Positions 1,927-57,457 of a stretch of 64,000 nt of DNA are shown here, in pieces. Each line of letters begins with the position of its first letter. Position 1 is the stretch's first letter. This stretch comes from Escherichia phage RudolfBernhard_Bas96, in the sequence record PQ850623.1; one strand, 5' to 3'. The translations under genes and the position numbers were made by a program. Below the pieces are notes generated by a model. That model was given only the letters and a program-made list of their open reading frames with translations, searched no databases and was not told where the DNA came from.

Positions 1927-4197
1927 ATGGAACACCAAGACACTTTTAAGCCTTTACCAGACCCGGCTCAATCAGAGAAGCTAACGGACTGGAAGAAGGA
2001 ACCAAGTATCCAATTACTGAAGGGTGATTTGGAATCAGCTAAACCTGCTCACGATGCAATTATGGCCCAGATTCGTGAGTGGAATGACCTAATGGAAGTC
2101 AAAGGTAAAGCTAAACCCCCAAAGGTTAAAGGTCGTTCACAAGTCCAACCTAGACTGGTTCGCCGTCAGGCAGAGTGGCGATATGCTCCATTGTCCGAGC
2201 CGTTCCTCTCATCTAATAAACTCTTTAAAGTAACTCCAGTTACTTTTGAAGATGAGTTAGCTGCACGTCAGAACGAATTAGTTCTTAACTACCAATTCCG
2301 TACACAGCTTAATAAAGTAAAACTAGTGGATGATTACGTACACAGTGTCGTAGATGACGGTACTGGTATTGCTCGTATTGGTTGGGAACGTAAGACTGTT
2401 AAGATTAAAACAGAAACACCAGTCTTCCAGTTGTATCCAATTGAGAATCAGGAACAGGCAGATGTTCTTCAACAGGCTTTACAGCTCCAGGCTGAGAATC
2501 CTCGTGAGTATGATGAAACTATGCCGGAAGATATTAAAGAAGCTGTTAACTACTTTAATGAAACTGGAGAAGCTACCTATGCAATCCAGACAGGGGTTAC
2601 TGAGGTAGAAGTAGAGAAGGCACTGGTTAACAGACCTACTGTTGAAATGCTTAACCCCAATAACGTAGTTATTGACCCAAGCTGTAATGGCGATTTGGAA
2701 AAGGCTCTGTACGCAGTTATCTCGTTTGAGACATGCAAAGCAGACCTCATGAAGAATAAAGACCGTTATCACAACTTAGATAAGATTGACTGGGAAAGTT
2801 CTAGTCCTATAACTGACCCAGACCATGAGAGTAAAACCCCTAGTGACTTCCAGTTTAAGGATGCACTTCGTAAGAAGGTTGTTGCTTACGAGTACTGGGG
2901 ATTTTACGACATCAATGATGATGGTTCTCTGGAACCAATTGTTGCTACCTGGATTGGTTCTACTCTTATCCGTATGGAGAAGAACCCATTTCCAGATGGT
3001 AAATTACCCTTAGTAGTTGTTCCTTACATGCCTCGTAAACGCGAACTCTTTGGTGAAGCTGACGCTGAACTGCTGGGGGATAACCAAGCAATTCTTGGTG
3101 CAACTATGCGTGGGATGATTGACCTGTTAGGTCGAAGTGCAAATGGACAACGTGGTTATCCTAAAGGGATGTTGGATACACTGAACCGACGTCGATATGA
3201 CGATGGGCAAGACTATGAATATAACCCAATGCAGGGTAATCCTAGTCAGGCCATTATGGAGCATAAGTTCCCTGAGTTACCCCAGTCGGCAATAGTAATG
3301 ACTCAGATGCAAAACCAGGAAGCTGAATCACTAACTGGTGTTAAAGCATTCTCAGGTGGTGTAACTGGTTCAGCTTATGGAGATGTGGCTGCTGGTATTC
3401 GTGGTGCACTTGATGCAGCATCCAAACGTGAGATGGCAATCCTTCGTCGATTAGCTAAGGGTATGGCAGACATTGGTACTAAGATTTGTGCAATGAATGC
3501 TGTGTTCTTATCTGAGAAAGAAGTAGTACGTATTACTAACGAGCAGTATGTAGAGATTAACCGTGAAGACCTTAAAGGTAACTTCGACATTGAGGTTGAT
3601 ATTAATACTGCTGAAATTGATAACCAGAAATCCCAGGACTTGAGCTTCATGGTTCAAACATTGGGTAATACGGTTGACCAAACTATTACGTTATCTCTTG
3701 TAGCTAAGATTGCAGAACTTAAACGTATGCCTGACCTGGCTCATGAGTTACGTACTTGGCAACCACAACCGGACCCTATGGAAGAACAGCTTAAGCAACT
3801 GGCAATTCAGAAAGCACAGCTTGAGAATGAAGAGTTACAAAGCAAGATTGCACTCAATATGGCTAAGGCTAAAGAGGCTGCTTCTGCTGGTGACCTTAAA
3901 GACCTGGATTATCTGGAACAGGAATCTGGTACTAAACATGCCCGTGATATGGAAAAACAAAAAGCACAATCTCAAGGAAACCAGAACCTTCAAATAACTA
4001 AGGCATTGACAACACCTATTAAAGAAGGGGAAACTACCCCCAACATATCTGCAGCTGTTGGATATAATACTTTGACTAACGGGAACTCTATACCAGAACG
4101 TGATTTAGCTGCTCAGCAAGACCCGGCTTATTCACTTAGTTCCCAATACTATGACCCTCGCCAAGACCCAGCATCGGCTCTTGGCATGAACCTGTAA
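1927..4197 (+). CDS. Portal protein (N4 gp59-like)
   Basis: 756-aa ORF with AGGA RBS; size and position (after lysis genes, before scaffold and capsid genes) match N4 late-gene order; no motif check possible by eye. Confidence 0.6.
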
Positions 4198-13757: not shown

Positions 13758-13820
13758 TTAACTGGCTTACTGTAGAGTAAGTTACCTATATACGATATAA
13801 GTTTGAACAGGAAACATGCT

Positions 13821-16800
13821 ATGTCAACATTTGACCGTCTGGCAGGTTTCGCAGACAGCATCACTAATGCTAAGCAAGTCGATGTCTCTACTGCAACCTC
13901 TCAGAAGCAAGCTGCACAAGGGCAAAGCCCTTTCCAATTAACCCCAGAGAATGCTTACAATCTCCAGACCGGACGAGTAGGTAATCTTGGAATCGGTGCA
14001 TTCGAACCAGGTTCACTTCAGGCAGATTTCACTCAAGCCTCCCCATTAGAAATCATTAATAAATACGGTAATGAGCAAGGTTTACAGATTCTTAATAGCC
14101 GAGCTAATGCTGCTGATGTTGTACGTCAGGACTTATCTAAACAACGTACTAACGCAGAAGCATTTGGCGATACTCTTTCTGGTGTTGGTCTTGGTGTTGC
14201 TAATACCCTTGGGGGCATTGCTGCTCTTGGTACAGGTCTGGTCAATGATAATGCCGGGGCATCCATTGCTTCCGGGATGGATTGGTTGAATGAAGGTGTA
14301 CACAATCTACAGTCTGATGCACTGAATGCTACCCGTAAAGTTGTTCAGAATCAGAACCAGATTTCTGCTCAAAAGAACCAGAAACTCTATGAACAAGACA
14401 TCAAAAATGGGGAGAGCGATTTGGTTGCCTCCTTGTCTCGCATTGGTCGTGACGCTTTCGATTCTGTTGCTAACACACTTGATAATGGTATGGCTGTTTC
14501 CGACGGACTGAGTGAAGGTGTTGGTTCTCTCTTTACTGGTGGTCCACTTATCCGTGGTGTATCTGCACTAGGTAAAGTAATGGTAGGGGGTGATAAAGCT
14601 GTTAAGGGTATTACCTTAGCTGCTGGGTTAGGTTCACGTCCTGCACAGGTTGCATTGTCTGCCGGTCGTGTTGCTGCACCTGCTATCGCAATCGGTGGTA
14701 TGGAAGCAGGTGGTGCATACCAACAGACTGCTTCTGAAATCATGAAGATGTCCCATCAAGAACTGGCAAGTAAGTCTCCTGTTTACCAACAACATATTGC
14801 CGATGGTTTATCTCCTGATGAAGCACGACGTCAGGCTGCATCTGAAACAGGTATTATTGCTGCTGGCTTAACTGCTCCAGTTGCTGCTGCTACCGGTCCA
14901 CTGGTATCTCGCTTTGAACTTAACCCACTTAAGGTAGGTTCACTGGCAGGTGCTGGTTCTAATATGCTGCGTGAAACTGTAGAGGAAGGTATTCAATCCG
15001 GCTTTGGTCAGTTCGCACAGAATACTGCAATCAAAGGAAACGTTGATGCATCCCGTGACACCCTCAAAGGGGTTGGTGAGCAGGCAGGTCTTGGTGCACT
15101 TTATGGGTTCGGTAGTGCTGGGGTTGCTCAGGCTCCTGGTGCAACTGTTAAAGCAGTTGGTGCTTCTGCTGGTCCTGCTCTTCGTACTACCCTGGCTGGT
15201 GCTTCTCTGGTTGGTAAAACATTAGCAAAAGCTGCCTCTCCTCTTACTAACATCCTGGTTCAACGTGGTGAAGAAGTTGCTAAGCGTAATGAACAAGCAT
15301 CCCCTGTAGCTGATGCTACGGTTAATGCTGCTGCACAGGAAGCTGCTGCTCAGGCAGAACAAGCACAAGCAACTGTACAGGAAGCAGTAGATGCAATGGA
15401 TATCACTCCAGAAGAGAAAGCTGCTGCTACCCAATACGCTGCTGATTTAACTCAGGCAATGAAGTTTGACCCAGTAGAATTGGAACAAGCTAACCCAGTA
15501 ATCCGTGAAGCTGTTTCTGGCTCTACTAACCGTGTAGAAGCTATTCAGAAGATGGCTGACCTGGTTAATACTGCTGAAGACCCTAACGTTCAAATGGAAG
15601 CTGCAATCCAGATGTATGACAACATCATGTCTATGGATAGCTTCATTAACCGTGACCCAGGTGCACTGGCTAATCTGGAACAAGGTTCTCCTGCTGCTGC
15701 AATCGTAGACCAGTTCTCTGGCTTGATGGCTAACGTACAGAATACCCCTAAAGTACTTCGCGCATTCCGTGCCATCCATTCCATGATTCAGGAACAGGCT
15801 GAAGCAGGTAAATTGAAAGCTACTGAAGAAGCCAATCAAGCCCAAGCAAACAATATTGCTATGGCTGCTGATGTGTCCCCAGAAGTGCTAGATGCAGATT
15901 CAGTGAACATGGTTCTGAAACATGCAAGTGAAGGTAAGATTACATTGGGGAATCGTCAACGTGCTGCCCTGCAATCTGCTGCTGCCTTGTTACAGGGTGC
16001 ACGAGAGTTCGACGCTAAAGCAGAAGAACTAGGCTTACGTCCTCAAGACATTGTTAGTAAACAGATTAAAACCGACGAGTCTCGTTCTAATGAAGGACAG
16101 TACTCTGCGTTGCAACATGCGAAACGCATTCGTTCTGCGTATAACTCTGGTAACTTCGATTTGGCCTCCGCTTATCTGAGCGACTTTATGAAGTTCGCCC
16201 AGCACATGCAGAATAAGGTCGGAGCGTTGAATGAGCATCTGATTTCGGGGAATGCGGATAAGAATAAGTCTGTTCATTATCAGGCTCTCTCGCCTTCCCG
16301 TGAATGGGTACGTAGTCGTACTGGCCTCGGTGTCAATCCGTATGATACCAAATCTGTTAAGTTTGCCCAGCAAGTAGGACTGGAGGCCAAAACCGTAGCT
16401 GATATTGCTAATGCACTTGCTACGGCTTACCCGGAGCTTAATGTTTCTCATGTGAAGGTTACCCCATTGGATTCACGTCTGGACAAGCCTGCTGCCCAGG
16501 TAGTTAAAGAGTTCCGTCAAGGTGGTCTTGATGCCACTCAGTCTCAACAGACTAATGAACCAGTGAATCAGGTTGATGAAACTCCTGCACCAGTGCAAGA
16601 GGACACTACTACTGTACAGCCTAAAGCTAAACCAGTGGTAGAAAATAAGACTGCTCCTACTAAGGAGACTAGTCCAAAAACAGAAGAAGTCTCTACTACT
16701 AAGCCTGAAACAGTAGATGCTACCCTTACTAATGAGGATACCATCGAGCAACCTACTGAATCGGAAAGAGATGCTTATGTGAAAGAGAATACTATTTCAC

Positions 16801-19800
16801 AAGATACTCTTAATAAGTATGGTGACCGTAGAGAGAGTCCATGGCTCTTTGCTGATGGTACTGTTGTTGGTTCTAACGGTGACCATATCAGTCTGTCTGA
16901 TGTATTTGGTCATGATGGTTATCGTGATATGTCCTTGGATACTGGTGCTATTCGCTCTACTTTCTATAAAGGTAGTGAGCAACCATTTGTATCTCTGCAA
17001 TTGTTTGATAATCAGAAGTTGACTGCTGAACAATTCAATACTGTTCAATCTTTCGTTGAAGCCAATAATGCACAGATTCTGGTTGGTGTAGATACCTCTG
17101 GTCGTAACACTAACAACGTGGAGAAAGATGAGGTATCACTGGCTCAGCTAAAAGCAGGTTATACTGTTGGTGGTAAACCTCTGTCTGAAATGGAAACAGT
17201 GTTCCCTGTCTATAACAATGAAAAGACACCGAACCAGTTCCTGAAAGCATTCTCTCTGCCGGAAGAACCTAAGTCTCGTACCATTGGTTCCGAATCCCCT
17301 TTAGCTGATATTAAGCAAGCACTCTCTTCTGCTGCTCGCTTTGAAGCATTTACTCAAAAAGAAAATAACGCTCTCACAGGTGATGTGTTAAAACGCTATC
17401 AAGACTTGATGGACTTTGGGGAAACTCTGAAGACTACTTTGTCTGAACGACTGGCTAAGTTCCTTGCTAACAAAAATGTTGGTAAACGTTTTGCAGAAGG
17501 TACTGAAGCTAACCGTTGGGTAGGTGGTAAGTTACTTAACATCGTAGAGAAAGATGGAGATACCTTTAAGTTTAATGATCAGTTGTTAGAGACTGCTGTA
17601 CTTGCTGGTCTGCAATGGCGACTAACTGCTACACAGAATGCTGCCATTAAAGATATGAAAGACGTAGCTGCTATTACTGGTGTAGAAGCATCTCTGTTAC
17701 CAGAAGGCATTCTGGCTGAGTTCGAGAATGCCCAGACTTTAGTAGAAGCTACTAGCTCACTGGCTCAGAAGATTGAATCCTACTGGGGTTTGAATCGTAA
17801 CCCTAATGCACCACTGGGTTATACCAAGGGTATTCCAGTGGCAATGGCTACAGAGATTTTGTCTTCCCTCATTGAGATGGGTGCAGTTACTGAGACTATG
17901 CTGGATGTGTCTGAGATTGACCCAGACTCTAATAAGACTGTTGGTCTGTACACTATTAATAAGTTGGCTGATAAAGACCCTATTAATAATTTCCCTACAG
18001 CAATTGAAGAAGCTGTTTTGGTAAACCCGGAAGAGAAAATGTACTTTGGTGATGACATTCCTTCCGTGGCTCAAACTCAGTTACGTAACCCTGCTGTTAA
18101 GAACACCCCTGAACAGAAAGCTGCACTGAAAGCCGAACAGGCTACCGAGTTCCGTGTACACATGCCGATGGTTAACTTCTATGAAGCTTTAGGCCGTGAC
18201 AACATTCTGGAACTAATGGGTGCTGGTACTCTTAATCCTGATTTGCTGAATAAGAACAATGCTAAATCACTGGAAGGTAAGAACTTATCAGTATCTATGG
18301 CATATGATTCCTTGTTTGGTTTAATTAATCAGCTAAAAGAACAAGAGAATGGTTTGGATACCCCTATTCACTATGGCTATAACATGACCCGAGTAGGTCG
18401 TATGCAGATGCTTGGTAAGAACAACCCACAATCCAGTAAGCTGGTTCGTGAAGCAATTCTGCCAACCTTCTCTACTATTGACTTGAGTAATGAAAACAGC
18501 CAAGCGTTCTCTGACTTCCAGTTAGGACTGGCTCAGGCATTAGGCATCAAGGTACACAAAATGTCCCGTGAAGCTATGGCCGAAGAGTTGACTAAAGCTC
18601 TGGAAGGTAAACTGAAACCTGCTGTTGATATGATGGTTGAGTTCGATAAGTCTGGTTACTTACCTACAGATGCAGTAGATATTCTGAAGACCTCTCTGGG
18701 TGATAACAAATCCTTCGTAGCTCTCATGGCTCTGATGGAATATGCCCGTTACCTGAACAGTGATGACCGTGCCAACTTTACTACTCCCCTGTACGTTGAA
18801 GCTGATGGTGTAACCAACGGCCCAATCAACGCAATGGTATTAATGACTGGTGGTAAGTTCACTTCGGACTGGATTAAGAATACTGCCAAAGGTGGTTTGT
18901 TCTTCGGTCGTGCTGGTAAAACGATGAACGAACATTGTTCTATTGACGATAATGTTGACCTGTATGAAGCATCTACTAATGGTCTGCAATTTTATCTAAA
19001 TGAGTTACGTACTACTTACCGTAACAATATTCCGGTTATGAGCCAGATGAATCATCTCCAGAAGTTAATGGATTTGTTCATTAAAGATTTTAACCTGAAT
19101 GAAGACGGTACTCTGGACCTGAAACGTGGCATCGCTAAAAACCCCCTGACCATTACCATCTACGGTTCTGGTGCTCGTGGTATTGCTGGCAAGATGGTTA
19201 GTGCAATCACTGACACCATCTACGAACGCCTCAGTGACGTTCTACAAGCACGGGCTGCTGACCCTAGCATTTCCCCAGCTATGGCAATGTTTGGTAAGGA
19301 GGCTGCGTCTGAGGCAGATGCTCAGGCTATGCTGAATACCTTCCTTACTTCTATGGAAGCACTGACCGGTAAGATTCCAGCTAAGCGTAAAGGTAAGTTA
19401 TTTATTAAGGAAGTAGATGGTGCTCTGACTGGTGAGCTAGATCCCCAGGAGTTTACTGTATCTGGTGATGCCCTTAAGAACTTACAAGAGAATATGTTGC
19501 ACTTCTTCGTTGAACCAATGAGACAAAGTATCCGGTTCACCGTTGGTGAAGGTCTGATGCACTCCACTGAGAACTTACAGAAGGCTACCCAGATTCAGTC
19601 TCTGGTATTGCAGGATATGTTCCAACAAGCAGTACAAGCTAAGCTGGCAGAAAAAGAAAAAGACCCATCCTGGAAGAAGGGTGATTTCTTAACACAGAAA
19701 GAACTGAATGAAATTCAGAAATCATTGTCTCCACTGGCTCCAATGATTGAGACTGGTTCACAGACTTTCTACATTGCAGGAAGTGAGAATACTGATGTTG

Positions 19801-22800
19801 CTAACCAAGTACTGGCTACCAACTTAGATGACCGTATGCGTGTGCCAATGAGCATCTATGCTCCTTCACAGGCAGGCGTTGCAGGTATTCCATTTATGAC
19901 CATTGGTACTGGTGATGGCATGATGATGCAGACCCTTTCTACTATGAAAGGTGCTCCGAAGAATACCCTGAAAATCTTTGATGGTATGAACATTGGTATC
20001 AATGACATCACTGATGCAAGCCGTAAAGCTAATGAGGCTGTATATACTTCCTGGCAGGGCAACCCTATTAAGAACGTGTATGACTCCTTCTCTAAGTTCA
20101 TGAAGAACGTAGACTTTAATAAGTTGTCAGATAAGACAATTGATGACATTGCCCGTTCTGCTTTAGATTTTGAACAGCTTTCTCATATCAGTCGTGTTGA
20201 GGGAGACAGGCAGTATAAGATTGATATGATTAAGAATTCCGGTGTTAACCTTATTGAACGTAACTTGCGTAACATTGCTCTGGGTGTAGATATTCGTCAC
20301 AAAGTAATGAACCAAGTACAGACCACTGTTGACCAGATGGCTGCTGTGGGTGCTCCTTATGTGAACAACGGTAAAATCTCTCTGGAAGGTCTGACTGTAG
20401 ACCAGCAAGTAGCTAAGCTGAACGAACTGTTCGATGCTGAATTAAACAAGCGTCGTGATGCAGTACGTGCTGCTAAAGCAGAACCAGTGAAAGAAGTACC
20501 AGTTATGGAACAAGTTGGTCGTGTACTTAAGTCTGGTGTACGTCTGTTATCTAATACTGCTATCACTAAGCTGGGTAAAGAGATGACCCCTGAACAACAA
20601 GCAGTATTGAAAGAAGTACAGAAATCCCTTGCTGCTAAAGACTACAAGGTTGTTTACGGTACTCCTGCTCAACTGGATGCTTACGCTATTGAGAAGAATA
20701 TTACTCGTCCTGCACCGGAAGATATTGAAGCTGCTGAAGCTGGTAATGCGTATGGCTGGACTAACTTTGATGATAAGACCATCTACTTAGTTACCCCTTC
20801 TTTAGAGACTCTGGTTCACGAACTGGTACATGCTTCTACTTTTGAATCTGTACTGGCTCACTATGAGGGTACTCCTAATGAAGCAGTCCAGAATATTGAA
20901 GACCTGATGAACCAGTTCCGTACTCTGGATGTTAAGAACGAATCCCCGGCAGTACGTGAAGCATATGCTGATGCACTCAATACCATTAATGGTCACTTGT
21001 CTAATGGCTTCATTGAACCAGCAATGGCTAAAGCTGCTGCACTGAATGAGTACATGGCATGGGGCTTAACCAACCGTGAACTGATTGGTAAGCAGAAGAA
21101 GACTACTGCACTGAAGACTATGGTTCAGTCTGTATATGAAGCAATTAAGCGTCTGGTATTTGGGCGTAAGAAAGCACCTGCTAATGCAGATGATATGTTC
21201 TCTGGCTTACTGTTTAACTCTTCAGTAGTTATGCGTGGACAGGCTCCTACGGCTGCTGTATCCAAGGACACTACCTTGTTTCATAACAAGGCATACGGTG
21301 ACAATACCCGTCTGGAAGAGTTGGGACAGACTTTTGATAAACTGATTACTAACTACATTGGTTCTGAACCAGTACAGCAAGTAATTCGTAAAGGTAAGTT
21401 CTCTGATGCAGTAGTGAATGCAACTAAAGTAACTCGTGATGTTCAGGCTCACGGCTTTACCATGAATATGCAGGAACAGCGACTGTTTACTAATATCGTT
21501 GCTGCTTTGGCTACTGAAGCTGCTATTAGCCCGGCTGCTCTTTCTCGTGCACAGGAATATTACGCACACGTCACCAAGAACCTGACCGTTGAAGCATTCA
21601 TGGCTGACCCGGATAGTACTAACCCTGCTGACCGTTATTATGCTCAGCAGAAGTTCGATACTATCATGGGGGCTAACAACATTGAGTTTGATGCACAGGG
21701 TCATTCTTCCTTACTGCCTACCTTTGTTGGTCTGGCAATGGTAAGTGAAGAGGTGCGTAACGTACTGGCTAACATTCCTGTTATGAAAGCAGATAAGAAA
21801 TCTGGTAATACCATTGATGCAATGCTGACTAACATCGGTACTGCTGCAATGTCTAGTCTGAATGCTCGTGTAGCTGGTGATACCAAAGCTACCAACGTAC
21901 AGGAAGGTATGGATGCACTGGCTCAGACAATCATGCAGACTAGCTTAAATGCACAGTCATTCTATGATTCCGTTGCTACACCTAGTGGTAATGCTATTGA
22001 CCGTGCTAATCAGTATCTGGTGGATTCTATTGATGTACTGTCTACTCGTGCTTTAGAAAGTGCCCGTGAAGTTGCAGCTAATACCAAGAATCCATTGGTT
22101 AAGGGTGCTGCTCATGCTGCACAACTGGTAGCTGCCATTGCTACAGAGAAGAATGGTGCAATCGTAGCCGAAGGTGTTATGGCTGCAATGAACCAGGGCA
22201 AGGTATGGCAACCTTTCCACGACTTGGTTAATGACTTAACCGGTCGTACTAAGAGTAATGCTTCTGTGTATGATTTGATTAAAGCAGTTCGTGCACAGGT
22301 ACAAGCAGACCGTCAGCAGTTCCGTGAACATCTGCCTACCACTATTGCATCTAAGTTCAGCCGTAAGCTGACTAATGATGAGTGGAAAGCAATGTACACT
22401 GGTATGGGTAAAACTGACTTAGCTGTTCTGCGTGACACCATGTCTCTGGCTGAAATCCGTGACCTACTGTCTGACCAAAAGATCGTTGACCGTGAAGTGA
22501 ATAAGCTGGAAGCAGATTTGCAGAAGCAAGCTGGTCGTAACTGGCCTCTTATTAGCCGTAAATCTAAGCAACTGGCTCAGTACATGATTAACGGTACAGT
22601 CGGCAATAACCTGCTGCGTAATGCTACTGCAATCTCTCGTATGCTGGGTGAACGTCAGGCTGCTCGCTCTACTGTAGATGTAGCTCAACTGGATAAACTG
22701 ATTACCCTGTATGCACTGGAAGCAATGAATAAGTCTGACCGTGAGATGTTATCTTCACTGGCTCAGGCAGAAGTTGATGGAATGGACTTTGCTACTTCTT

Positions 22801-24620
22801 ACCTGGTTGGTCAGCGTAAAGATGAAATGGCTAAAGCCAAGTCTGATATGCGTGCAACCCTGAACCAGTACAAAGGGCATATCCCTAGTGAGACTAAACA
22901 GAGTGTTAATCTGATTGTTGCTGAAGATAGTCAGTTTGCTGATTTGATTGAGAAGTCCTATGTACGTCTGGGTACTTATCAAGGTAGCTCTGCTAATCGT
23001 GGTCCGGCACGTAGTTACTACTTTGCACCAGTACAGGCACAGGCTCCTTTCTCACAGGGTATCCTACAGAACGTTCGTAATACTGCTGGTGGTGTAGACC
23101 TCGGCACAGGCTTTACGATGGGTTCGATGGTAGCTGGTCGTATTACTGACAAGCCTTCCGTAGACCGTATTACTAAAGCACTGGCTCGTGGTGAACGTGG
23201 TAATGAACCACTGCTGCCTGTGTATGATGACAAAGGTAATGTAGTTGCTTATGAGCAATCTATTGACCCCAACATGCTGAAGCACATTGAAGGTGAAAAC
23301 CACCTTGCCCGTGCAATTGGTGTATGGCGTGGTCGTCAGGTGGAAGAAGCTAAGGCTCAGCGTTTCAACGATATGCTGATTGAGAACCTGCATAGCATGT
23401 ATGAGAATGACATTAAGATGTCTGCCTCTAACAAGTCCCAGTATGTGAACCTTCTTGGTTCTAAACTGGATCCAGTAACTGCTGATGCTCTTAAGCTAAT
23501 GAACAGTGAAACCCGTCAGAAAGCAGAAAGTCTGTTTGGTGAGGGTGAACTGTGGGTACGTCGTGACATGCTGAATGATGCACTTGGTTATCGTGCAGCT
23601 TCTGTTGGTGATGCCTGGTCTGGTAATTCTCGTTGGTCCCCGGAAACTCTGGATACTTTCAAGAAAGCTATGCTGGGTGTATTTGGCAACCGTGCTTATA
23701 AGTACACAATGGGTGGAGAGAACCTGGTTCAAAACTTAGTTAAAGAAGCCAAGACTCTGATTGTAGTTAAGTCAGTAGTCGTACCTGCTGTTAACTTCTT
23801 GGCTAACCTTTACCAGATGGTTGCTCGTGGTGTACCGGTTAAGAACATTGCTAAGAGCATTCCACAGAAGACTGCTGAGATTAACCAGTACCTTAAATCT
23901 CGTCTGCGTCAGGTAGATGCAGAAGCAGAATTACGTGCAGCTACTAACCCGAACCAGATTCGTAAACTTAAGGCTGAGATTCAGTCCATTACTGATAGTC
24001 ATAAGCGTATGAGTATCTGGCCTCTGTTAGAAGCCGGTGAGTTCTCTTCTATTGCAGATGCTGGCATCGGTCGTGATGACATCCTGATTACTGAGGGCAA
24101 ACTTCATGAATACATGGAAAAACTGGCTGATAAGTTACCTAAGTCTGTACGTACTGCCGGACGCTATGCACTTATCACTAAAGATACTGCTCTGTTCCAG
24201 GGTATCCAGAAGACAGTTGAGTACTCTGACTTTATCGCTAAAGCAATCATCTATGATGAACTGACTCAGCGTAAAGGTAAGACTCGTGAAGAAGCACTTG
24301 GACGTGTAACGGAAGAGTTTGTTAACTATGACCGTCTGCCGGGTCGCTTCCGTGGGTATATGGAAAGTGTTGGTTTAATGTGGTTCTACAACTTTAAGAT
24401 TCGTTCAGCTAAGGTTGCAGTGTCCATGATTCGTAATAACCCGGTACACGCAGCAATGGCTATGTTGGCTCCAACCCCTACCATGTTTGGTAACGTTGGT
24501 CTGCCTATTCAAGACAACATCTTTAGCATTGCTGCTAAAGGTAGTCTGGATTACTCATGGGGCTTTGGTCAGGGGCTTCGTGCACACAACCTGAACCCTT
24601 GGATGAACCTGGTAAACTAA
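13821..24620 (+). CDS. Virion-encapsidated RNA polymerase (vRNAP, N4 gp50-like)
   Basis: Single 3599-aa ORF (track begins at TTG 13803; ATG 13821 follows AGGAAA RBS); central region has a T7-like motif B (KRGIAKNPLTITIYGSGARG); size is diagnostic of N4-like phages. Confidence 0.85.
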   Translation: MSTFDRLAGFADSITNAKQVDVSTATSQKQAAQGQSPFQLTPENAYNLQTGRVGNLGIGAFEPGSLQADFTQASPLEIINKYGNEQGLQILNSRANAADVVRQDLSKQRTNAEAFGDTLSGVGLGVANTLGGIAALGTGLVNDNAGASIASGMDWLNEGVHNLQSDALNATRKVVQNQNQISAQKNQKLYEQDIKNGESDLVASLSRIGRDAFDSVANTLDNGMAVSDGLSEGVGSLFTGGPLIRGVSALGKVMVGGDKAVKGITLAAGLGSRPAQVALSAGRVAAPAIAIGGMEAGGAYQQTASEIMKMSHQELASKSPVYQQHIADGLSPDEARRQAASETGIIAAGLTAPVAAATGPLVSRFELNPLKVGSLAGAGSNMLRETVEEGIQSGFGQFAQNTAIKGNVDASRDTLKGVGEQAGLGALYGFGSAGVAQAPGATVKAVGASAGPALRTTLAGASLVGKTLAKAASPLTNILVQRGEEVAKRNEQASPVADATVNAAAQEAAAQAEQAQATVQEAVDAMDITPEEKAAATQYAADLTQAMKFDPVELEQANPVIREAVSGSTNRVEAIQKMADLVNTAEDPNVQMEAAIQMYDNIMSMDSFINRDPGALANLEQGSPAAAIVDQFSGLMANVQNTPKVLRAFRAIHSMIQEQAEAGKLKATEEANQAQANNIAMAADVSPEVLDADSVNMVLKHASEGKITLGNRQRAALQSAAALLQGAREFDAKAEELGLRPQDIVSKQIKTDESRSNEGQYSALQHAKRIRSAYNSGNFDLASAYLSDFMKFAQHMQNKVGALNEHLISGNADKNKSVHYQALSPSREWVRSRTGLGVNPYDTKSVKFAQQVGLEAKTVADIANALATAYPELNVSHVKVTPLDSRLDKPAAQVVKEFRQGGLDATQSQQTNEPVNQVDETPAPVQEDTTTVQPKAKPVVENKTAPTKETSPKTEEVSTTKPETVDATLTNEDTIEQPTESERDAYVKENTISQDTLNKYGDRRESPWLFADGTVVGSNGDHISLSDVFGHDGYRDMSLDTGAIRSTFYKGSEQPFVSLQLFDNQKLTAEQFNTVQSFVEANNAQILVGVDTSGRNTNNVEKDEVSLAQLKAGYTVGGKPLSEMETVFPVYNNEKTPNQFLKAFSLPEEPKSRTIGSESPLADIKQALSSAARFEAFTQKENNALTGDVLKRYQDLMDFGETLKTTLSERLAKFLANKNVGKRFAEGTEANRWVGGKLLNIVEKDGDTFKFNDQLLETAVLAGLQWRLTATQNAAIKDMKDVAAITGVEASLLPEGILAEFENAQTLVEATSSLAQKIESYWGLNRNPNAPLGYTKGIPVAMATEILSSLIEMGAVTETMLDVSEIDPDSNKTVGLYTINKLADKDPINNFPTAIEEAVLVNPEEKMYFGDDIPSVAQTQLRNPAVKNTPEQKAALKAEQATEFRVHMPMVNFYEALGRDNILELMGAGTLNPDLLNKNNAKSLEGKNLSVSMAYDSLFGLINQLKEQENGLDTPIHYGYNMTRVGRMQMLGKNNPQSSKLVREAILPTFSTIDLSNENSQAFSDFQLGLAQALGIKVHKMSREAMAEELTKALEGKLKPAVDMMVEFDKSGYLPTDAVDILKTSLGDNKSFVALMALMEYARYLNSDDRANFTTPLYVEADGVTNGPINAMVLMTGGKFTSDWIKNTAKGGLFFGRAGKTMNEHCSIDDNVDLYEASTNGLQFYLNELRTTYRNNIPVMSQMNHLQKLMDLFIKDFNLNEDGTLDLKRGIAKNPLTITIYGSGARGIAGKMVSAITDTIYERLSDVLQARAADPSISPAMAMFGKEAASEADAQAMLNTFLTSMEALTGKIPAKRKGKLFIKEVDGALTGELDPQEFTVSGDALKNLQENMLHFFVEPMRQSIRFTVGEGLMHSTENLQKATQIQSLVLQDMFQQAVQAKLAEKEKDPSWKKGDFLTQKELNEIQKSLSPLAPMIETGSQTFYIAGSENTDVANQVLATNLDDRMRVPMSIYAPSQAGVAGIPFMTIGTGDGMMMQTLSTMKGAPKNTLKIFDGMNIGINDITDASRKANEAVYTSWQGNPIKNVYDSFSKFMKNVDFNKLSDKTIDDIARSALDFEQLSHISRVEGDRQYKIDMIKNSGVNLIERNLRNIALGVDIRHKVMNQVQTTVDQMAAVGAPYVNNGKISLEGLTVDQQVAKLNELFDAELNKRRDAVRAAKAEPVKEVPVMEQVGRVLKSGVRLLSNTAITKLGKEMTPEQQAVLKEVQKSLAAKDYKVVYGTPAQLDAYAIEKNITRPAPEDIEAAEAGNAYGWTNFDDKTIYLVTPSLETLVHELVHASTFESVLAHYEGTPNEAVQNIEDLMNQFRTLDVKNESPAVREAYADALNTINGHLSNGFIEPAMAKAAALNEYMAWGLTNRELIGKQKKTTALKTMVQSVYEAIKRLVFGRKKAPANADDMFSGLLFNSSVVMRGQAPTAAVSKDTTLFHNKAYGDNTRLEELGQTFDKLITNYIGSEPVQQVIRKGKFSDAVVNATKVTRDVQAHGFTMNMQEQRLFTNIVAALATEAAISPAALSRAQEYYAHVTKNLTVEAFMADPDSTNPADRYYAQQKFDTIMGANNIEFDAQGHSSLLPTFVGLAMVSEEVRNVLANIPVMKADKKSGNTIDAMLTNIGTAAMSSLNARVAGDTKATNVQEGMDALAQTIMQTSLNAQSFYDSVATPSGNAIDRANQYLVDSIDVLSTRALESAREVAANTKNPLVKGAAHAAQLVAAIATEKNGAIVAEGVMAAMNQGKVWQPFHDLVNDLTGRTKSNASVYDLIKAVRAQVQADRQQFREHLPTTIASKFSRKLTNDEWKAMYTGMGKTDLAVLRDTMSLAEIRDLLSDQKIVDREVNKLEADLQKQAGRNWPLISRKSKQLAQYMINGTVGNNLLRNATAISRMLGERQAARSTVDVAQLDKLITLYALEAMNKSDREMLSSLAQAEVDGMDFATSYLVGQRKDEMAKAKSDMRATLNQYKGHIPSETKQSVNLIVAEDSQFADLIEKSYVRLGTYQGSSANRGPARSYYFAPVQAQAPFSQGILQNVRNTAGGVDLGTGFTMGSMVAGRITDKPSVDRITKALARGERGNEPLLPVYDDKGNVVAYEQSIDPNMLKHIEGENHLARAIGVWRGRQVEEAKAQRFNDMLIENLHSMYENDIKMSASNKSQYVNLLGSKLDPVTADALKLMNSETRQKAESLFGEGELWVRRDMLNDALGYRAASVGDAWSGNSRWSPETLDTFKKAMLGVFGNRAYKYTMGGENLVQNLVKEAKTLIVVKSVVVPAVNFLANLYQMVARGVPVKNIAKSIPQKTAEINQYLKSRLRQVDAEAELRAATNPNQIRKLKAEIQSITDSHKRMSIWPLLEAGEFSSIADAGIGRDDILITEGKLHEYMEKLADKLPKSVRTAGRYALITKDTALFQGIQKTVEYSDFIAKAIIYDELTQRKGKTREEALGRVTEEFVNYDRLPGRFRGYMESVGLMWFYNFKIRSAKVAVSMIRNNPVHAAMAMLAPTPTMFGNVGLPIQDNIFSIAAKGSLDYSWGFGQGLRAHNLNPWMNLVN

Positions 24621-26161: not shown

Positions 26162-26410
26162 TTAGTACTATTTACCCATAGCTGGGAGGCTTGTATGAAC
26201 TTTATGAGTACCAGGTTCAGGTACGCTTAACTGGTGTGCTACTTGGATTGATAGTCCACTCATATCGCTCAGGCTAGGATTTAAGGAGTTCCTATTCTCC
26301 AGCGAAATTCCCGTCGAGGGGAATAACAATACATTAGCAGCCACTGGACTGTCTTACCAGTGTTGTCTTTAGAGTGCTATGCAATCAGGACTATGTTACT
26401 GCTGAATGGG

Positions 26411-26495
26411 TGTCCACTACTGGATTTGAACCAGTGACCCCAGACACCTTGTTCTCTCGAAGCTTTCCTGTGCTCTACCACTGAGCTAAGTGGAC
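26411..26495 (-). tRNA. tRNA-like gene, about 85 nt, isotype unassigned
   Basis: Minus strand reads acceptor GTCCACT/AGTGGAC, canonical D-arm GCTC-AGTGGTA-GAGC and T-arm ACTGG-TTCAAAT-CCAGT; the 35 nt between them did not fold into a standard anticodon arm by eye. Confidence 0.45.
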
Positions 26496-26994
26496 ATAAT
26501 AGAATGAGCTGGGGCAGGATACCTACCCCATCCAACCAAGTTACTCTGTATCTGAAGAACTATATTAAGTAGTTCATTTTACAGCAATAAGTAATTAGCT
26601 ACTGCTTAACCAGGATGATTAGACGTGCTCATATTGGGTGAGTCATGCCAGGCTCTAACTGGCTCCTTCTTCGCAATCCTTACATACCCCTACATAATTA
26701 TTGCGTTAAGCTTTTTTGTTTAAGTTTAAGTGAAGGCGTTCTTGCTGACTCATAATTGGGTGGGCGTTTGACGAATGACTAGTTCGTTACTACCCGTTTG
26801 CCATAAGTACCTGGCGACTATGGTTTGAGATGGGAGTCCGAGTCCTGTACAGCCTTACCGTCTCCACATTGGCAGCGTATCTAGAATAGCACTTCCGGGT
26901 ACGGATTTAACTGTTACATCTCAAATATGGTAGGGGCGTCCAGAGGTTTCATCTGGTACTTACGCCGTCGTATTTACGACTTACCCCCATTGTT

Positions 26995-27075
26995 TGGTTG
27001 CAGGTGGAGGAGTTGAACCTCACTTCACATACAGATTGGGAAACCTGTAGCATAACCGTATGCTCACCCACAATA
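26995..27075 (-). tRNA. tRNA-like element (3' half convincing, 5' boundary uncertain)
   Basis: Minus strand ends ...GAGG-TTCAACT-CCTCC-ACCTGCA-A-CCA (T-arm, acceptor 3' strand, discriminator, encoded CCA); no complementary 5' acceptor found at the expected distance. Confidence 0.3.
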
Positions 27076-27200
27076 ATTCTTCCAATTCAGAGTAGCACTG
27101 TTGCAGTCGTCACTGCCCATAGGTGAGGACTCGAACCTCACAATACCGTATGGCTAACGTCGCTGAACCTTTTCGCGTTCTATGCAGTGCTACTTTGAAT

Positions 27201-27285
27201 TGGTTACCAGTGAAGGATTCGAACCTCCGGTTGGAGTCTATAGCTTACCGCAGCAGCCCTCCAATCTAGCGGTGTCACACTTAGT
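27201..27285 (-). tRNA. tRNA-like element (3' half convincing, 5' boundary uncertain)
   Basis: Minus strand ends GGAGG-TTCGAAT-CCTTC-ACTGGTA-A-CCA; the only perfect 5' acceptor complement (TACCAGT) lies 124 nt upstream. Confidence 0.3.
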
Positions 27286-27326
27286 CCAAACTTGAACATG
27301 CCAAGCCATCTCGTGCAACTGGTAAT

Positions 27327-27405
27327 TGGTTCCGGCGTCTGGACTCGAACCAGAACACTCATGCCGGGCACGACACTAGTACCTACACCGGAATAGTTGC
27401 CAGGG
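27327..27405 (-). tRNA. tRNA-like element (3' half convincing, 5' boundary uncertain)
   Basis: Minus strand ends TCTGG-TTCGAGT-CCAGA-CGCCGGA-A-CCA; nearest acceptor complement (TCCGGTG) gives only 66 nt. Confidence 0.3.
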
Positions 27406-28210
27406 ATTCCACCTGGCTCTATCTGTTTTTATAGTCACTCAGATATTGTCTGGACTTTGACCATCTGGGGATTCGAACCCTCATCTCGGTGGCCAACCGT
27501 GCATTTGCCTCATGCTACTCTGGTCATAGTTGGCCCCCGTTTCTAATACATGGACGGGGGAACTCCACGGTCGTTTGATAATCAGGACGACTCACTCCTG
27601 ACTGAGGTTACGCTGTTAGGCGACCATCAGATACGCTTCTTCGTTTGCATTTATGTTATTGGTTCGTTTCTAAAAAACCGCATAATCGCTACGAAAACTA
27701 TCGGAGAGTGTACTAACTCTGGGCCACGCTTTTGTGGACATCGGCCTACCTTCCACAGCTAATCAGCTAATACACTCACCGATAGCCCGTAATAGGGGGG
27801 AGGGGACGAATCCTCCCTTTATACCCTATATTGCATGTAAGACCTAACAATTCGATGTTGTAGACGGATAGGCTTATGCTTACCGGCATTAAACTCCCGC
27901 CCCCTTAGTGGGCTGGGTTAATTAGTATACTCAACATTGAGCAGTTAGTTTGATAAGGGATCTGAAGCCTTATCCCAAAGATACCAACCTTTGGGATATA
28001 GCCTAAGATTCAGAAATGGCCCCTATAGGAGAGGCCATTGATTAACCCGAATGTTGCTTTACATTTTCTGTGATAACCGGTTCTTAAAATAGTCTGTCTG
28101 ACGGATGGGGGGCCACCCCTAGCGTCAGTGCCATACGGCAAAGATTAAGTTAAGAAAGGTTATGATAGGAGTTCCTATCTCAAAGGATTCTGACAGAACC
28201 CTTCACGATA

Positions 28211-30905: not shown

Positions 30906-31050
30906 CTACACTCCCAGCAGCATTACCTGCATCTGCATGTTTCCATGCAGTCCAGACTATATCTTCATCCTCGTTAATTACGATAGGATGCTGACCGCTT
31001 CGAGCAGCATTAGCTTCTGCCCTACTCCATTACTGGATAGTCGTTGCACC

Positions 31051-31542
31051 TTACTTAATCTTTTGTATAGCATGGGGTAAGCCATGCTCAATGATATAGG
31101 CATTTCTCGCTTCCAGAGCTTCAACCTCGGAATCAAAATTACCTACAAAGATTCTTTCATTACCATTGCAGATTCTTGCTGACCATTTTTTCTTAGTGGT
31201 ATTTAAACCTATTCCTAAGTAGGTAGCTTTACTGGTTATTCTTTTTCTGGAATTAATGGCCTGAGTTGTTCTAGTTGCCCATCTCAGATTTCCTGGTACA
31301 TACCCCAGTGAACCATCTATTCTGTCTAAAGTAAGACCCAGCCTTTCCCTGTCTGCATAACCATCTAATGACTCTAGATAGGCAGCAAACACTTTGAAGT
31401 CAGAGAACTCTTCTGCTCTAGTTATCCCCCTAGCCCCATAGTTTTTATAACTAGCGTGCTTAGGGTTGTCACATCTCTGTTTAATGGTTAACCATGTGTA
31501 ATACAGAGGATGTAATTCATTACCGAATCTTTTCTTACTCAT
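31051..31542 (-). CDS. HNH-family homing endonuclease with AP2 DNA-binding domain (degenerate HNH)
   Basis: 163 aa; LDRIDGSLGYVPGNLRWAT (HNH_3-like with His replaced) plus C-terminal AP2-like YLGIGLNTTKKKWSARI...FDSEVEALEARNAY; flanked by about 130-145 bp of noncoding sequence on each side. Confidence 0.55.
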   Translation of the reverse strand: MSKKRFGNELHPLYYTWLTIKQRCDNPKHASYKNYGARGITRAEEFSDFKVFAAYLESLDGYADRERLGLTLDRIDGSLGYVPGNLRWATRTTQAINSRKRITSKATYLGIGLNTTKKKWSARICNGNERIFVGNFDSEVEALEARNAYIIEHGLPHAIQKIK

Positions 31543-31674
31543 GTTTGTAACTCCGTTAATAAAAACCGGAGAAAGATTAAGTCTTGGCTCAGGATTGCCC
31601 TCGTCTTTACGTTAGGGGTTTCCCTGAATTCAATCAGTTATCATTAATCATTACTGACTAACGGGCCTTAGTAG

Positions 31675-32010
31675 TTAAGCCTTTTGGGTATTAGCAGATG
31701 GCAATACATATTGGGATTCCAGCATGTCCATCATAAAGGTAGCAGAGTCGATAATGATACCATCAACATCATCTGCCATTTCACCACCAGGTGATGCAAC
31801 ATCAAATGCTTCCCAAATCTGGTATGGGTCTTCAATGTTGTAAGTATTGAACTTGTTACGGAAAGGCAGACGTTTACCTGCTTCAGTATTCAGATAGAGC
31901 CAGCGTTCCTGGTTCCGGATATTACGCAGTGATGCTGATTTACCACTCGCTGAGAATCCTGCGATCAGGATTAGCTGAGTGTTCATATCATTGGAGATTT
32001 CTTCGGACAT
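31675..32010 (-). CDS. N-terminal segment of a split P-loop ATPase (possible exon 1)
   Basis: 111 aa; Walker A GFSASGKS and Walker B-like GIIIDSATF; too short to be a complete ATPase. Confidence 0.45.
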   Translation of the reverse strand: MSEEISNDMNTQLILIAGFSASGKSASLRNIRNQERWLYLNTEAGKRLPFRNKFNTYNIEDPYQIWEAFDVASPGGEMADDVDGIIIDSATFMMDMLESQYVLPSANTQKA

Positions 32011-56638: not shown

Positions 56639-57457
56639 CTAATCCTCGTTTACTAGTTCTTTATCTGCAAATTCAATCACTGCCTTGTTGTAGGATGTCC
56701 CTTGAAAATTAATATGGTATCCACAGGCATAGGTTCTGCCCCTCTTGTCATACTTATGCGCTAGTGAGAAGTTATTGCCTTCCTGAGTCACTAATTCCAT
56801 TACTTCTTTAGCAGTACGACTGTACTTCTCAAAGGCTTTAACTCGTTTCTCATAGTCCTGACGGGTTTCACCCTCTTTGGGTTTATCCATATTAGGACGA
56901 GAGTCTTTTACATAGTTAGCAACGTCCCAGTTAATACAGAGGCGTTGGTTGTTCATACGGTTGATGTGGTCAAGGCAGACGTCCATCTCATGATGGTTCT
57001 TCTTGAGGATGATGCTTCCTTTAGTCTGGTAGTAACCAGTATCCCTGTTAGTTCTGACGGGATTGGGAGCACTTACTATAGGTAATGGATACTGGAATGC
57101 TTCCAGTTCCATCTGAACATCTTCACTAATCTCATAGATAACACCGAACTTGTCGATGGTAGGGTCATAGTTGAAGCAGTCATTCTCTGCCATCTTATGC
57201 AGACAGTCAGCGATGTACTGAGCATCATCTGAGTGACTCATGAGAGAGCCAATCATAGTCTGGATGTCAGCACGTTTATGTAGGGCAATCTGCACCATTG
57301 CATCAATGAGCAGCTTATAATCAATATCTAAATAGGCAGCGAATGCCTTAAAGTCAATTTCTTTGGAGTCCTCGAATTCCTTCCTCATGCGAGGCAGTAA
57401 TTGATTTTTATTGAATAGGACTTCAAGCTGCTTCTGATGTTCAATAGATGAGTACAT
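56639..57457 (-). CDS. N4-type RNA polymerase II small (N-terminal) subunit
   Basis: 272 aa; GGAGA RBS; assignment by adjacency to the catalytic subunit and N4 gp15/gp16 arrangement. Confidence 0.5.
   Translation of the reverse strand: MYSSIEHQKQLEVLFNKNQLLPRMRKEFEDSKEIDFKAFAAYLDIDYKLLIDAMVQIALHKRADIQTMIGSLMSHSDDAQYIADCLHKMAENDCFNYDPTIDKFGVIYEISEDVQMELEAFQYPLPIVSAPNPVRTNRDTGYYQTKGSIILKKNHHEMDVCLDHINRMNNQRLCINWDVANYVKDSRPNMDKPKEGETRQDYEKRVKAFEKYSRTAKEVMELVTQEGNNFSLAHKYDKRGRTYACGYHINFQGTSYNKAVIEFADKELVNED

Follow-up and report, generated by a model that had tools for sequence, protein, structure and literature searches.

The 64,000-nucleotide (nt) stretch of Escherichia phage RudolfBernhard_Bas96 analysed here (record PQ850623.1; the window) carries, on its minus strand between positions 28205 and 26132, an array of RNA units shaped like transfer RNAs (tRNAs). 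The tRNA-like cluster noticed there by an earlier reading of the sequence by eye (the original prediction) is real, and can be described neither as a common tRNA cluster nor as a group of pseudogenes. We consider it probable that the units do not decode, and that they are processed into stable small RNAs built on a tRNA-like scaffold. The array belongs with the non-coding RNAs that are associated with tRNA clusters in phages; within it, no minus-strand open reading frame (ORF) exceeds about 60 amino acids (aa). Its units have defined structures, are conserved, and have been exchanged as modules between phages, with selection on their stems and on the codons of a short tag. Array coordinates below are on the minus strand and run 5′ to 3′.

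The cluster is nearly invisible to tRNA-finding tools. ARAGORN at its default settings found no tRNA or tmRNA (transfer-messenger RNA) genes in all 64 kb. The Rfam tRNA model (RF00005) was matched above threshold only by element A (26495–26411, 54.4 bits), which has an aberrant anticodon arm, and C, D, E and F gave no Rfam tRNA match even at E ≤ 10. As neither tool returned an ordinary full-length tRNA, the cluster is not an ordinary one. When ARAGORN was relaxed (thresholds of 70–80%, or introns allowed), seven to eight abutting tRNA-sized units appeared in the array, and these include E (27526–27457), D (27392–27327), C (27324–27201), F (27198–27115), B (27072–26995) and A (26495–26408), with others upstream of these. 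In each unit the acceptor helix and T arm were good and the D/anticodon part was poor or absent, in agreement with minimum free energy (MFE) folds. The T-loop motif GGTTCRANNCC occurs in six copies on one strand within 1.1 kb; together with the covariation of stems among relatives, this is a pattern beyond chance. Elements A, C and D have 7-bp acceptor and 5-bp T stems, with T loops UUCAAAU, UUCGAAU and UUCGAGU, respectively, and B has 8-bp and 4-bp stems. None of these four forms a standard anticodon arm (5-bp stem, 7-nt loop). Almost all segments of the array were more stable in fold than shuffled controls, and no known ribozyme or small RNA family scored above its Rfam threshold in the cluster or in related arrays.

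These results bear directly on the original prediction, which had described T arms and acceptor ends with encoded CCA, and an 85-nt element with canonical D and T arms. The CCA ends were found at 26997–26995 (B), 27203–27201 (C) and 27329–27327 (D), and the 85-nt element is element A, at 26495–26411. The prediction had also reported that no standard anticodon arm and no 5′ acceptor strand could be located. The anticodon arms are indeed aberrant. The 5′ acceptor strands had been missed by eye: they lie at 27392–27386 (D), 27324–27318 (C) and 27072–27065 (B), and the stems that they close were formed by both MFE folds and relaxed ARAGORN. Failed manual folding, which the prediction had itself offered as an explanation, thus accounts for the acceptor strands and not for the anticodon arms. 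Elements E and F, and a minihelix at 27829–27792, are additional to those first noted. Nor had the prediction recognised the tRNA slot of N4-type phages in this region, or the tmRNA-like coding module immediately upstream. Among the other explanations offered then (atypical tRNAs, pseudogenes and tRNA-derived structured RNAs), the evidence favours the last.

Element A has an acceptor stem (GUCCACU/AGUGGAC), canonical D (GCUC-AGUGGUA-GAGC) and T (ACUGG-UUCAAAU-CCAGU) arms and the tail A-CCC. A module of 30 nt (CAGG-AAAGC-UUC-GAGA-GAA-CAAGGUG-UCUG) takes the place of the anticodon arm; it forms a hairpin with a GNRA cap, below which lies a conserved internal loop. Aligned to the Rfam tRNA model, A has 24 nt at the anticodon arm where the model has 11, and a 22-nt region with the GNRA hairpin stands where a normal anticodon loop would be. 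Close relatives have a normal 74-nt tRNA-Ile(AAU) at the same site, with identical acceptor and T arm. Homologues of A were found in more than 100 Ackermannviridae (Cba120, SFP10 and others) at about 91–94% identity (87% in SKML-39), where they are unannotated or labelled 'tRNA-OTHER', and also in the T5-like phage EP_H11 and other N4-like contigs. Across the eight distinct sequences of this family, all cells of the 23 base pairs (100%) were paired, and compensatory changes were seen at five of seven pairs in the acceptor. The covariation score was reached by none of 500 shuffles, and pairing fell to 33–45% in slid controls. The module (consensus CAGG-ARAGY-UUC-GNRA-GAA-CAAGGUG-YCUG) is nearly invariant across N4-like, Ackermannviridae and T5-like phages, and the variants of its tetraloop (GAGA, GGAA, GAAA and GGGA) are GNRA in all.

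T1-like siphoviruses and prophage-like contigs have a second cloverleaf, which is not a tRNA and in which the same 30-nt module stands as the 'anticodon arm'. This cloverleaf is closed by a 9-bp helix (GUUGUGGUG/CACCACAAC or GAUUGGAUG/CAUCCAAUC), and has a first arm GCGCA-GGCUGA-UGCGC and a third arm GCCGG-AGAUCAGCA-CCGGC. Its 26 pairs were paired in 97.9% of cells, and four pairs of the closing helix were compensatory. In one prophage-like contig (L079, approximately 2640–2960), the cloverleaf has on one side a perfect boxA (GCTCTTTAACA) accompanied by a boxB-like hairpin, and on the other the beginning of an ORF whose product resembles, by eye, the phage 21 N antiterminator, so that it occupies an N-gene leader. 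This position hints at a possible cis-regulatory use of the cloverleaf RNA. Several known motifs were considered for the module and rejected. As judged by eye, its flanking nucleotides do not fit a sarcin-ricin loop, a K-turn or 16S rRNA positions 1499–1506 (AACAAGGU), and by a rough estimate an 8-mer match to rRNA is expected by chance.

Element D (27392–27327; 66 nt) combines an acceptor stem (UCCGGUG/CGCCGGA), U8 and A9, a T arm (UCUGG-UUCGAGU-CCAGA) and A-CCA with a single 6-bp central hairpin (GUGUCG-UGCC-CGGCAU, 4-nt loop), and has no D stem and no anticodon loop. Together with the adjoining cassette S65 (the stretch 27460–27324) it is 94% identical to phage N4, compared to 67–77% for the flanking protein-coding DNA. 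Two substitutions in phage AL25 leave its central hairpin paired; in AL25 and in phage Jura, D is labelled 'tRNA-Undet'. Cassette S65 (27457–27394) consists of a bulged helix (CC..AUCUG/CAGAU(A/G)G) and a hairpin (GCCAGG-UGGAAUC-CCUGGC), and is also found alone, in kuraviruses, temperate Klebsiella phages and the Shigella phage DS8. Covariation is seen in the stem of this hairpin (CCAGG/CCUGG, CAGG/CCUG, CCGG/CCGG), and its loop, UGGAANC, is conserved.

Element C (27324–27201; 124 nt) has an acceptor stem (UACCAGU/ACUGGUA), a T arm (GGAGG-UUCGAAU-CCUUC) and A-CCA, with about 88 nt of extra hairpins in place of the D and anticodon arms. It was called only by relaxed ARAGORN, as 'Thr + 45-nt intron' or as a 96-nt 'Ser'. 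Compensatory changes were seen in its acceptor (C:G to U:A in PBM-2 and locus L064) and in its T stem (A:U to G:C in PD205 and L064). Element F (27198–27115), also detected by ARAGORN at a relaxed threshold only, places a T hairpin (GUGAGG-UUCGAGU-CCUCAC, 27141–27123) within an acceptor-like helix (CCAUA/UAUGG, 27153–27117) and has no CCA; its T stem covaries from GUGAGG/CCUCAC to GUAAGG/CCUUAC. The minihelix (27829–27792; AUAGGG-UAUAAA-[GGGAGG-AUUCGUCC-CCUCCC]-CCCUAU) stacks 12 bp in the geometry of an acceptor/T-arm minihelix (MFE z = −3.5), and both it and F are barely more than such minihelices.

In element B (27072–26995), the acceptor (UGUGGGUG/CACCUGCA) is 8 bp and the T stem 4 bp long, a 6-bp D stem closes a loop of 4 nt, and A-CCA follows. 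B is structurally coherent: its MFE fold is a cloverleaf (z = −2.2), and the loop on its anticodon stem has 8 nt, UUUCCCAA (or 6 nt, with U:A as closing pair), and is CUUCCACA in two relatives. Relaxed and mitochondrial ARAGORN gave it the anticodon 'cc' or 'tccc'. The Rfam tRNA-Sec model matched B (27073–26998) at 31.7 bits, under its gathering score of 47. B shares the 6-bp D stem and 8-bp acceptor of tRNA-Sec and fails as a member of that family, having no UCA anticodon and a variable region of 9 nt. Element E (27526–27457) is weak: relaxed ARAGORN gave it an acceptor (UGACCA/UGGUCA), two short hairpins and a T arm (GGG-UUCGAAU-CCC), with no CCA.

Between two tRNA-shaped units, the presumed array transcript would also bear a tmRNA-like, tag-coding module (MLD; 27697–27534). 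It comprises a PK1-like region (27697–27660; PK, pseudoknot), AUAAAU followed by a resume codon GCA at 27648, a tag ORF (27648–27619, stop UAA at 27618–27616), PK2 (27601–27570) and PK3 (27568–27534). The tag reads GCA AAC GAA GAA GCG UAU CUG AUG GUC GCC, or ANEEAYLMVA; its frame has no start codon, and an in-frame stop lies three codons upstream. The MLD resembles tmRNA (SsrA; two-piece forms RF01850 and RF04321) in its AUAAAU before a GCA resume codon without a start codon, in a 10-codon tag ending in hydrophobic L-[AM]-[AV]-A, in a stop followed by two H-type pseudoknots, and in a PK2 that aligns to the beta_tmRNA model. It differs in having neither a tRNA-like domain (TLD; G3:U70) nor a P2 helix linking the ends, in scoring far under the Rfam thresholds (at 27777–27569, 23.5 bits against 47 for tmRNA_permuted and 16.7 against 84 for beta_tmRNA, with similar values at related loci), in starting only some 60 nt ahead of the tag at loci with a promoter immediately upstream, and in being a movable cassette.

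A core of about 110 nt of the MLD is approximately 80% identical in T1-like siphoviruses, a Roufvirus, Ackermannviridae (Serratia phage 3M) and other contigs. In 68 loci from three phage groups the tag has 10 codons and a stop without exception, in 12 distinct coding variants; the peptides include ANEEMYLAVA, ANDDVVLMAA, ANEEAYLMVA, ANEEVYLAVA, ANDNAFLMAA, ANDNTFLAVA, ANDNAYLMVA and ANEEMYLAAA. Identical peptides are written in different codons (Ala-Ala as GCG GCG, GCA GCC or GCT GCT), and the last Ala codons vary synonymously only, as predicted for selection on the peptide. Conservation does not extend to an overlapping AUG frame, which phage 3M lacks. PK2 and PK3, both H-type and 3′ of the stop, have 21 pairs that were paired in 100% of cells among 11 distinct sequences, four of them changing on both sides, and the siphovirus versions showed further covariation. 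For the PK1-like region, the variation was consistent with pairing without being decisive.

Adjoining the MLD is helix X (27785–27698; MFE −41.6 kcal/mol, z = −5.3), an irregular helix of about 20 bp (CUAUCGG-U-GAGUGUA... / ...UACACUC-U-CCGAUAG) that encloses an H-type pseudoknot (GUGGA..GGCC..UCCAC..GGCC). Several of its pairs are compensatory in PBM-2, PD205 and PhAPEC5, and a U.U mismatch has become G:C in PhAPEC5. An equivalent helix precedes the MLD in Ackermannviridae.

The MLD also occurs, with a cloverleaf array, in 159 of 5426 complete E. coli genomes, where RefSeq leaves it unannotated. In O26:H11 strain 11368 this array has the gene for the Q antiterminator on one side and that for the holin on the other, and follows closely on a tR′-like terminator. 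In siphoviruses and lambdoid prophages the MLD sits within an array of 400–700 nt (L119, Shigella phage DS8, 300–1000; L121, the O26:H11 prophage, 3460–3990; L006; L007), in the order promoter or tR′-like terminator, tag module, two pseudoknots, 15-bp helices, and cloverleaf domains closed by GUUGUGG/CCACAAC. The 15-bp helices have a U.U mismatch and a boxA-like 3′ strand, UGCUCUUU, and the cargo that they enclose differs between phages. A Nus-factor boxA was considered for the array of the window and rejected: such sequences are found elsewhere (UGCUCUUU on the 3′ strands of siphovirus units, and a true boxA in L079), but the minus strand of the cluster has no boxA-like site.

No TLD (G3:U70, T arm, 3′ CCA, helix P2) could be assigned to the MLD, and Rfam gave no other tmRNA-like or TLD match anywhere in the window. 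Two arrangements were considered and rejected. In a permuted two-piece tmRNA, the acceptor piece would lie upstream; in siphovirus and Ackermannviridae loci, however, a sigma-70-like promoter lies directly upstream of the MLD or of its helix, leaving no space for such a piece where it is immediately adjacent, and the loop enclosed by helix X has no T loop or CCA. A swapped acceptor/P2 topology built from the repeated flanking helices of the siphovirus arrays is contradicted by covariation within single units in L014 and L024, which supports local hairpins. Strict linkage of the MLD with the A module or with D was also rejected: each is found without the others, and N4 has D and no MLD.

Comparison of relatives by BLAST showed that the region varies by whole blocks, which may be kept, missing or exchanged, and that the breakpoints coincide with the borders of units. 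E20, ST4 and L057, for example, lack 27526–27330 entirely, with 27527 joined to 27329–27333. The position of E is occupied in PBM-2 by a 'tRNA-Cys(ACA)'-like unit, and in PhAPEC5 and PD205 by a 15-bp helix unit. Single modules recur in kuraviruses, T1-like and T5-like phages, Ackermannviridae and lambdoid prophages, together in some genomes and apart in others; the block 27900–27693, for instance, is found in kuraviruses, and 27920–27694 is about 80% identical to kuraviruses such as ES17.

We propose the following mechanism. The zone from 28205 to 26132 is most likely transcribed as one polycistronic non-coding RNA, which a terminator at 26163–26132 would end. RNase P, 3′ trimming enzymes and the CCA-adding enzyme recognise the acceptor/T-arm part of a tRNA, which is common to the units. 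Each unit appears to retain this target, an acceptor-like helix stacked on a T-arm hairpin, often with encoded CCA, and other structures stand in for the D/anticodon half, such as a GNRA-capped arm (A), a single hairpin (D) or about 88 nt of extra hairpins (C). RNase P, 3′-end trimming and CCA enzymes would cut the array at its units, with possible further cleavage by RNase III at long helices such as X. Stable small RNAs would be released, whose replaced arms would carry the activity, probably through the binding or titration of host or phage factors, plausibly ones related to translation or defence. The role of the tRNA-like part would be that of scaffold and punctuation rather than of adaptor.

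Several points weigh against this proposal. The single transcript and its cleavage by RNase P and RNase III are assumptions, and the division into scaffold and cargo is an analogy to engineered tRNA scaffolds. A sigma-70 scan gave no promoter on the minus strand, N4 middle promoters being outside the scope of that tool. Within Gamaleyavirus, high identity alone says little, as these genomes are about 90% identical overall. Some units also contribute less than others: B has three homologues, with one G.U to G:C change among them; the outer helix of F is weakly kept among relatives; and E, again with three homologues, has one change that breaks a pair.

How does the array compare with known systems? 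Like the tRNA cluster of N4, it occupies the slot between gp47 and gp48, consists of tandem tRNA-sized units on one strand with frequent CCA, is closed by a terminator and has variable, cassette-like content. Unlike that cluster, it has no standard decoding tRNA, its anticodon arms are replaced by conserved non-decoding structures, and its units are common as modules to unrelated phage families. In phage T4, the small stable 'species 1/2' RNAs are co-processed with tRNAs. In engineered 'tRNA scaffold' RNAs, the RNA of interest replaces the anticodon arm, and the cell processes and stabilises it. Element A has the same design, in that its acceptor, D arm and T arm are intact and its anticodon stem-loop has given way to a foreign structured hairpin, but is natural and conserved.

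GOLLD and ROOL are likewise large, ornate, pseudoknotted RNAs of phages and prophages, of unassigned function and often near tRNA islands (PMC12286853), and tRNAs are sometimes embedded in the GOLLD linker (PMC12286853). Each of these is, however, one large conserved fold, whereas the array is a chain of small exchangeable units, and the GOLLD and ROOL covariance models gave no match at E ≤ 1 in the window or related loci. The TLD-only tmRNA of mycobacteriophage DS6A (PMC4131195) and the Y-RNA-like tRNA mimics of bacteria (YrlA) are, like the units here, non-decoding acceptor/T-arm modules on phages or mobile elements, and D has a TLD-like layout. D nevertheless lacks G3:U70 and any sequence similarity to tmRNA, and the array has no Ro-binding stem; the YrlA model gave chance-level matches only, on true tRNAs. 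Neither tRNA clusters with stable RNAs, GOLLD/ROOL, TLD-only tmRNAs nor counter-defence tRNAs match the array by sequence or covariance model. A 2014 census listed phage tmRNAs only in mycobacteriophages and Bacillus phage G. Our literature searches found nothing specific on phage tmRNA in these families or on these tRNA-like RNAs, and no prior description of a GNRA-armed tRNA body or an orphan tmRNA-like module.

A special case of the cargo idea is that the units are anti-defence decoys, which would absorb or block tRNA-targeting nucleases or tRNA-sensing immune proteins, with D titrating SmpB. We regard this as rather unlikely. Phage tRNA clusters have been proposed to counter anticodon nucleases (PMC10264068), and the TLD-only tmRNA of DS6A and similar tmRNA-inhibiting molecules have been discussed (PMC4131195); D has just this TLD-only layout, in which a single hairpin, a T arm and ACCA are present and a D stem is missing. 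Close downstream of the array there is a Tad2-like anti-Thoeris gene, and the patchy, cassette-like distribution of the units is typical of accessory or anti-defence loci. However, a decoy for nucleases might be expected to imitate the anticodon loop of a host tRNA, and the arms that replace the anticodon loops resemble none of these. D, moreover, has no G3:U70 and no Rfam tmRNA match.

The units could instead be decaying pseudogenes: ordinary tRNAs of the slot whose anticodon halves were scrambled by mutation and illegitimate recombination, and which now lack function. The history of the slot gives this idea some substance. Relatives have tRNA-Ile(AAU) at the site of A and the 'tRNA-Cys'-like unit at that of E, E and the outer helix of F are poorly conserved, and units are freely gained and lost between close relatives. 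A hairpin at 26529–26511 (GGGGUAGG-UAU-CCUGCCCC) is, from alignment and ARAGORN on relatives, the T-arm/acceptor end of a second tRNA-like gene, the remnant of a deleted neighbour; the intact version in relatives is a 'tRNA-???' (8-nt or 6-nt loop UAAACUAA) upstream of tRNA-Ile. But A, C, the T stem of F and helix X keep their pairing by compensatory changes, the replaced arm of A is nearly invariant across three phage groups and recurs in a second scaffold, and D is much better conserved than the neighbouring protein genes (94% against 67–77% identity to N4). The compensatory stems, the conservation of D and the presence of A in several phage families therefore argue that these are not decaying pseudogenes, a reading that we hold to be very unlikely. 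The random disruption of stems that decay would leave is contradicted by the compensatory changes in A, C, F and X and by the conservation of D; B (three homologues) and E (one broken pair) are thinly sampled. As a separate observation, the ordinary tRNAs of relatives in this slot have A at the wobble position (tRNA-Ile AAU, tRNA-Cys ACA; L001 1904–1982, L002 1896–1974, L003 1895–1973, and L047 upstream of its coding module), which is unusual for bacterial-type tRNAs.

It is also very unlikely that the units are atypical decoding tRNAs, with B as a quadruplet or frameshift-type reader and A and C containing introns; such a role is still conceivable for B, with its 8-nt anticodon loop, and not for the other elements. 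B, C and D do encode CCA, and ARAGORN in intron mode calls A 'tRNA-Pro(AGG) + 14-nt intron' and C 'tRNA-Thr(GGU) + 45-nt intron'. The B loop, UUUCCCAA (CUUCCACA in relatives), resembles a tRNA-Gly(UCC) loop plus one base, and one extra loop base is a likeness to classical +1 frameshift-suppressor tRNAs. However, the 'intron' of A is its most conserved part and recurs in the non-tRNA cloverleaf. Inserts of 14–45 nt are much too short for self-splicing group I introns; Rfam gave no group I intron match within the cluster, and E. coli is not known to possess an endonuclease for tRNA splicing. In D, an anticodon loop is missing altogether. In B, the D loop is only 4 nt long, linker nucleotides 8, 9 and 26 are absent, and the acceptor departs from E. 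coli Gly identity.

Finally, we find it extremely unlikely that the MLD and the unit that follows it (E, or whichever unit stands there) form one complete phage tmRNA, as ARAGORN at 80% proposes for 27787–27458 (acceptor GGCUAUC/GAUGGUC, T arm of E, tag ANEEAYLMVA) and as the helix-closed unit always found 3′ of the MLD might suggest: the proposed 5′ acceptor strand lies in helix X, where covariation ties it to a local partner, E is missing from E20, ST4 and L057 and replaced by unrelated units in PBM-2, PhAPEC5 and siphoviruses, G3:U70 and CCA are missing, loci L033 and L015 have an MLD with no T-loop motif within about 1.5 kb, the swapped acceptor/P2 alternative is contradicted by the within-unit covariation described above, and RNase P would sever the unit 3′ of the MLD.

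The 5′ part of the array (28205–27836) holds further stable hairpins, with z = −3.4 for 28205–28035 and z = −2.8 for 28034–27967, the latter a 'tRNA-???' by relaxed ARAGORN; the region is kept in relatives. A structured non-coding spacer (26994–26630) includes a three-way junction (26990–26927) ending ...GCCCC-U-ACCA; its segment 26994–26925 folds with z = −3.8, and it is conserved in relatives at 94–99%. Within the spacer, a 99-nt piece (26923–26826) was 91% identical to the N4 locus by BLAST, and a second piece of the array (26403–26334) was 84% identical to N4; both fold stably. Judged by identities above the 67–77% of the flanking genes, both are likely to be additional conserved RNA elements. 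The intrinsic terminator (26163–26132), found by a promoter/terminator scan, has a 13-bp G+C-rich stem followed by TTTTTTATTT and ends the array; the fold of 26330–26125, which contains it, has z = −4.3.

The window is that of an N4-like phage of the genus Gamaleyavirus, whose members are its best relatives; 26000–28300 matches Escherichia phages E20, KKP 3715 and PBM-2 at 90–94% identity. A 3605-aa ORF at 13803–24620 (plus strand) has a counterpart in N4 annotated as virion RNA polymerase. Upstream of the array are homologues of N4 SSB, gp46 and gp47, and the array, which starts next to the stop codon of the ORF at 28477–28211, sits between the homologues of gp47 and gp48. In the same gap, N4 and close relatives of it have tRNA-Asn, tRNA-Ser, tRNA-Thr, tRNA-Pro and one 'tRNA-Undet' (the D homologue in N4), which identifies the array zone as the tRNA slot of the lineage. 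It is thus an accessory tRNA slot of an N4-like phage, one that in this phage holds no standard decoding tRNA. Downstream lie a gp49/gp66-family gene (25956–25576) and, at 25484–24957, a gp49 homologue with a Tad2-like (Thoeris anti-defence 2) domain (Pfam E = 3e-24), which marks the neighbourhood as an accessory or anti-defence region. This gene and the cassette-like distribution of the modules fit an accessory or anti-defence locus.

Outside the array, the Rfam group I intron model gave two minus-strand matches, at 30933–31168 (48.4 bits, E = 3e-9, gathering score 50) and 31343–31687 (32.3 bits). Just downstream, the ORF at 30905–30462 matched only the C-terminal half of an AAA_24 ATPase domain, and a 163-aa ORF between the matches (31051–31542, minus strand) has no Pfam match. 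This suggests a split gene interrupted by one or more introns. A weak hammerhead HH9 ribozyme match at 56832–56907 (minus strand; 23.4 bits against a gathering score of 52, E = 0.24) is probably due to chance.

A broader reading, which we offer as speculation and think improbable as a whole, is that four or more groups of phages infecting enterobacteria (N4-like; T1-like and other siphoviruses; Ackermannviridae; lambdoid phages) and prophages of the enterohaemorrhagic E. coli (EHEC) type share a so far unrecognised toolkit of exchangeable structured-RNA cassettes on tRNA-like scaffolds. In this toolkit, the MLD would be an orphan module truly read by trans-translation although no canonical TLD is covalently joined to it, using either a separate tRNA-shaped RNA of the array or captured host tmRNA/SmpB, and the GNRA-armed A and TLD-like D would be scaffolded decoys or aptamers against host defences linked to translation. 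If all this were true, stalled proteins of host or phage would be re-tagged, by a split or modular tmRNA system, with a degron that the phage specifies.

The tRNA clusters of phages are usually seen as a codon supply or as spares against nucleases, and what tRNA finders miss in them goes unannotated. Here, in a well-studied N4/G7C-like lineage, tools at default settings see nothing in about 2 kb that in fact encode conserved, structured RNA, and its modules are also found in T1-like, Vi1-like, T5-like and kura-like phages and in the late-operon leaders of E. coli prophages. Two questions follow. What binds a tRNA body with an invariant GNRA-capped arm? And, the most interesting unexplained point, how does a tag frame under codon-level selection work without a recognisable tRNA-like domain? 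Either answer would extend knowledge of how phages control translation, ribosome rescue or tRNA-directed immunity, and the annotation of phage genomes would improve.

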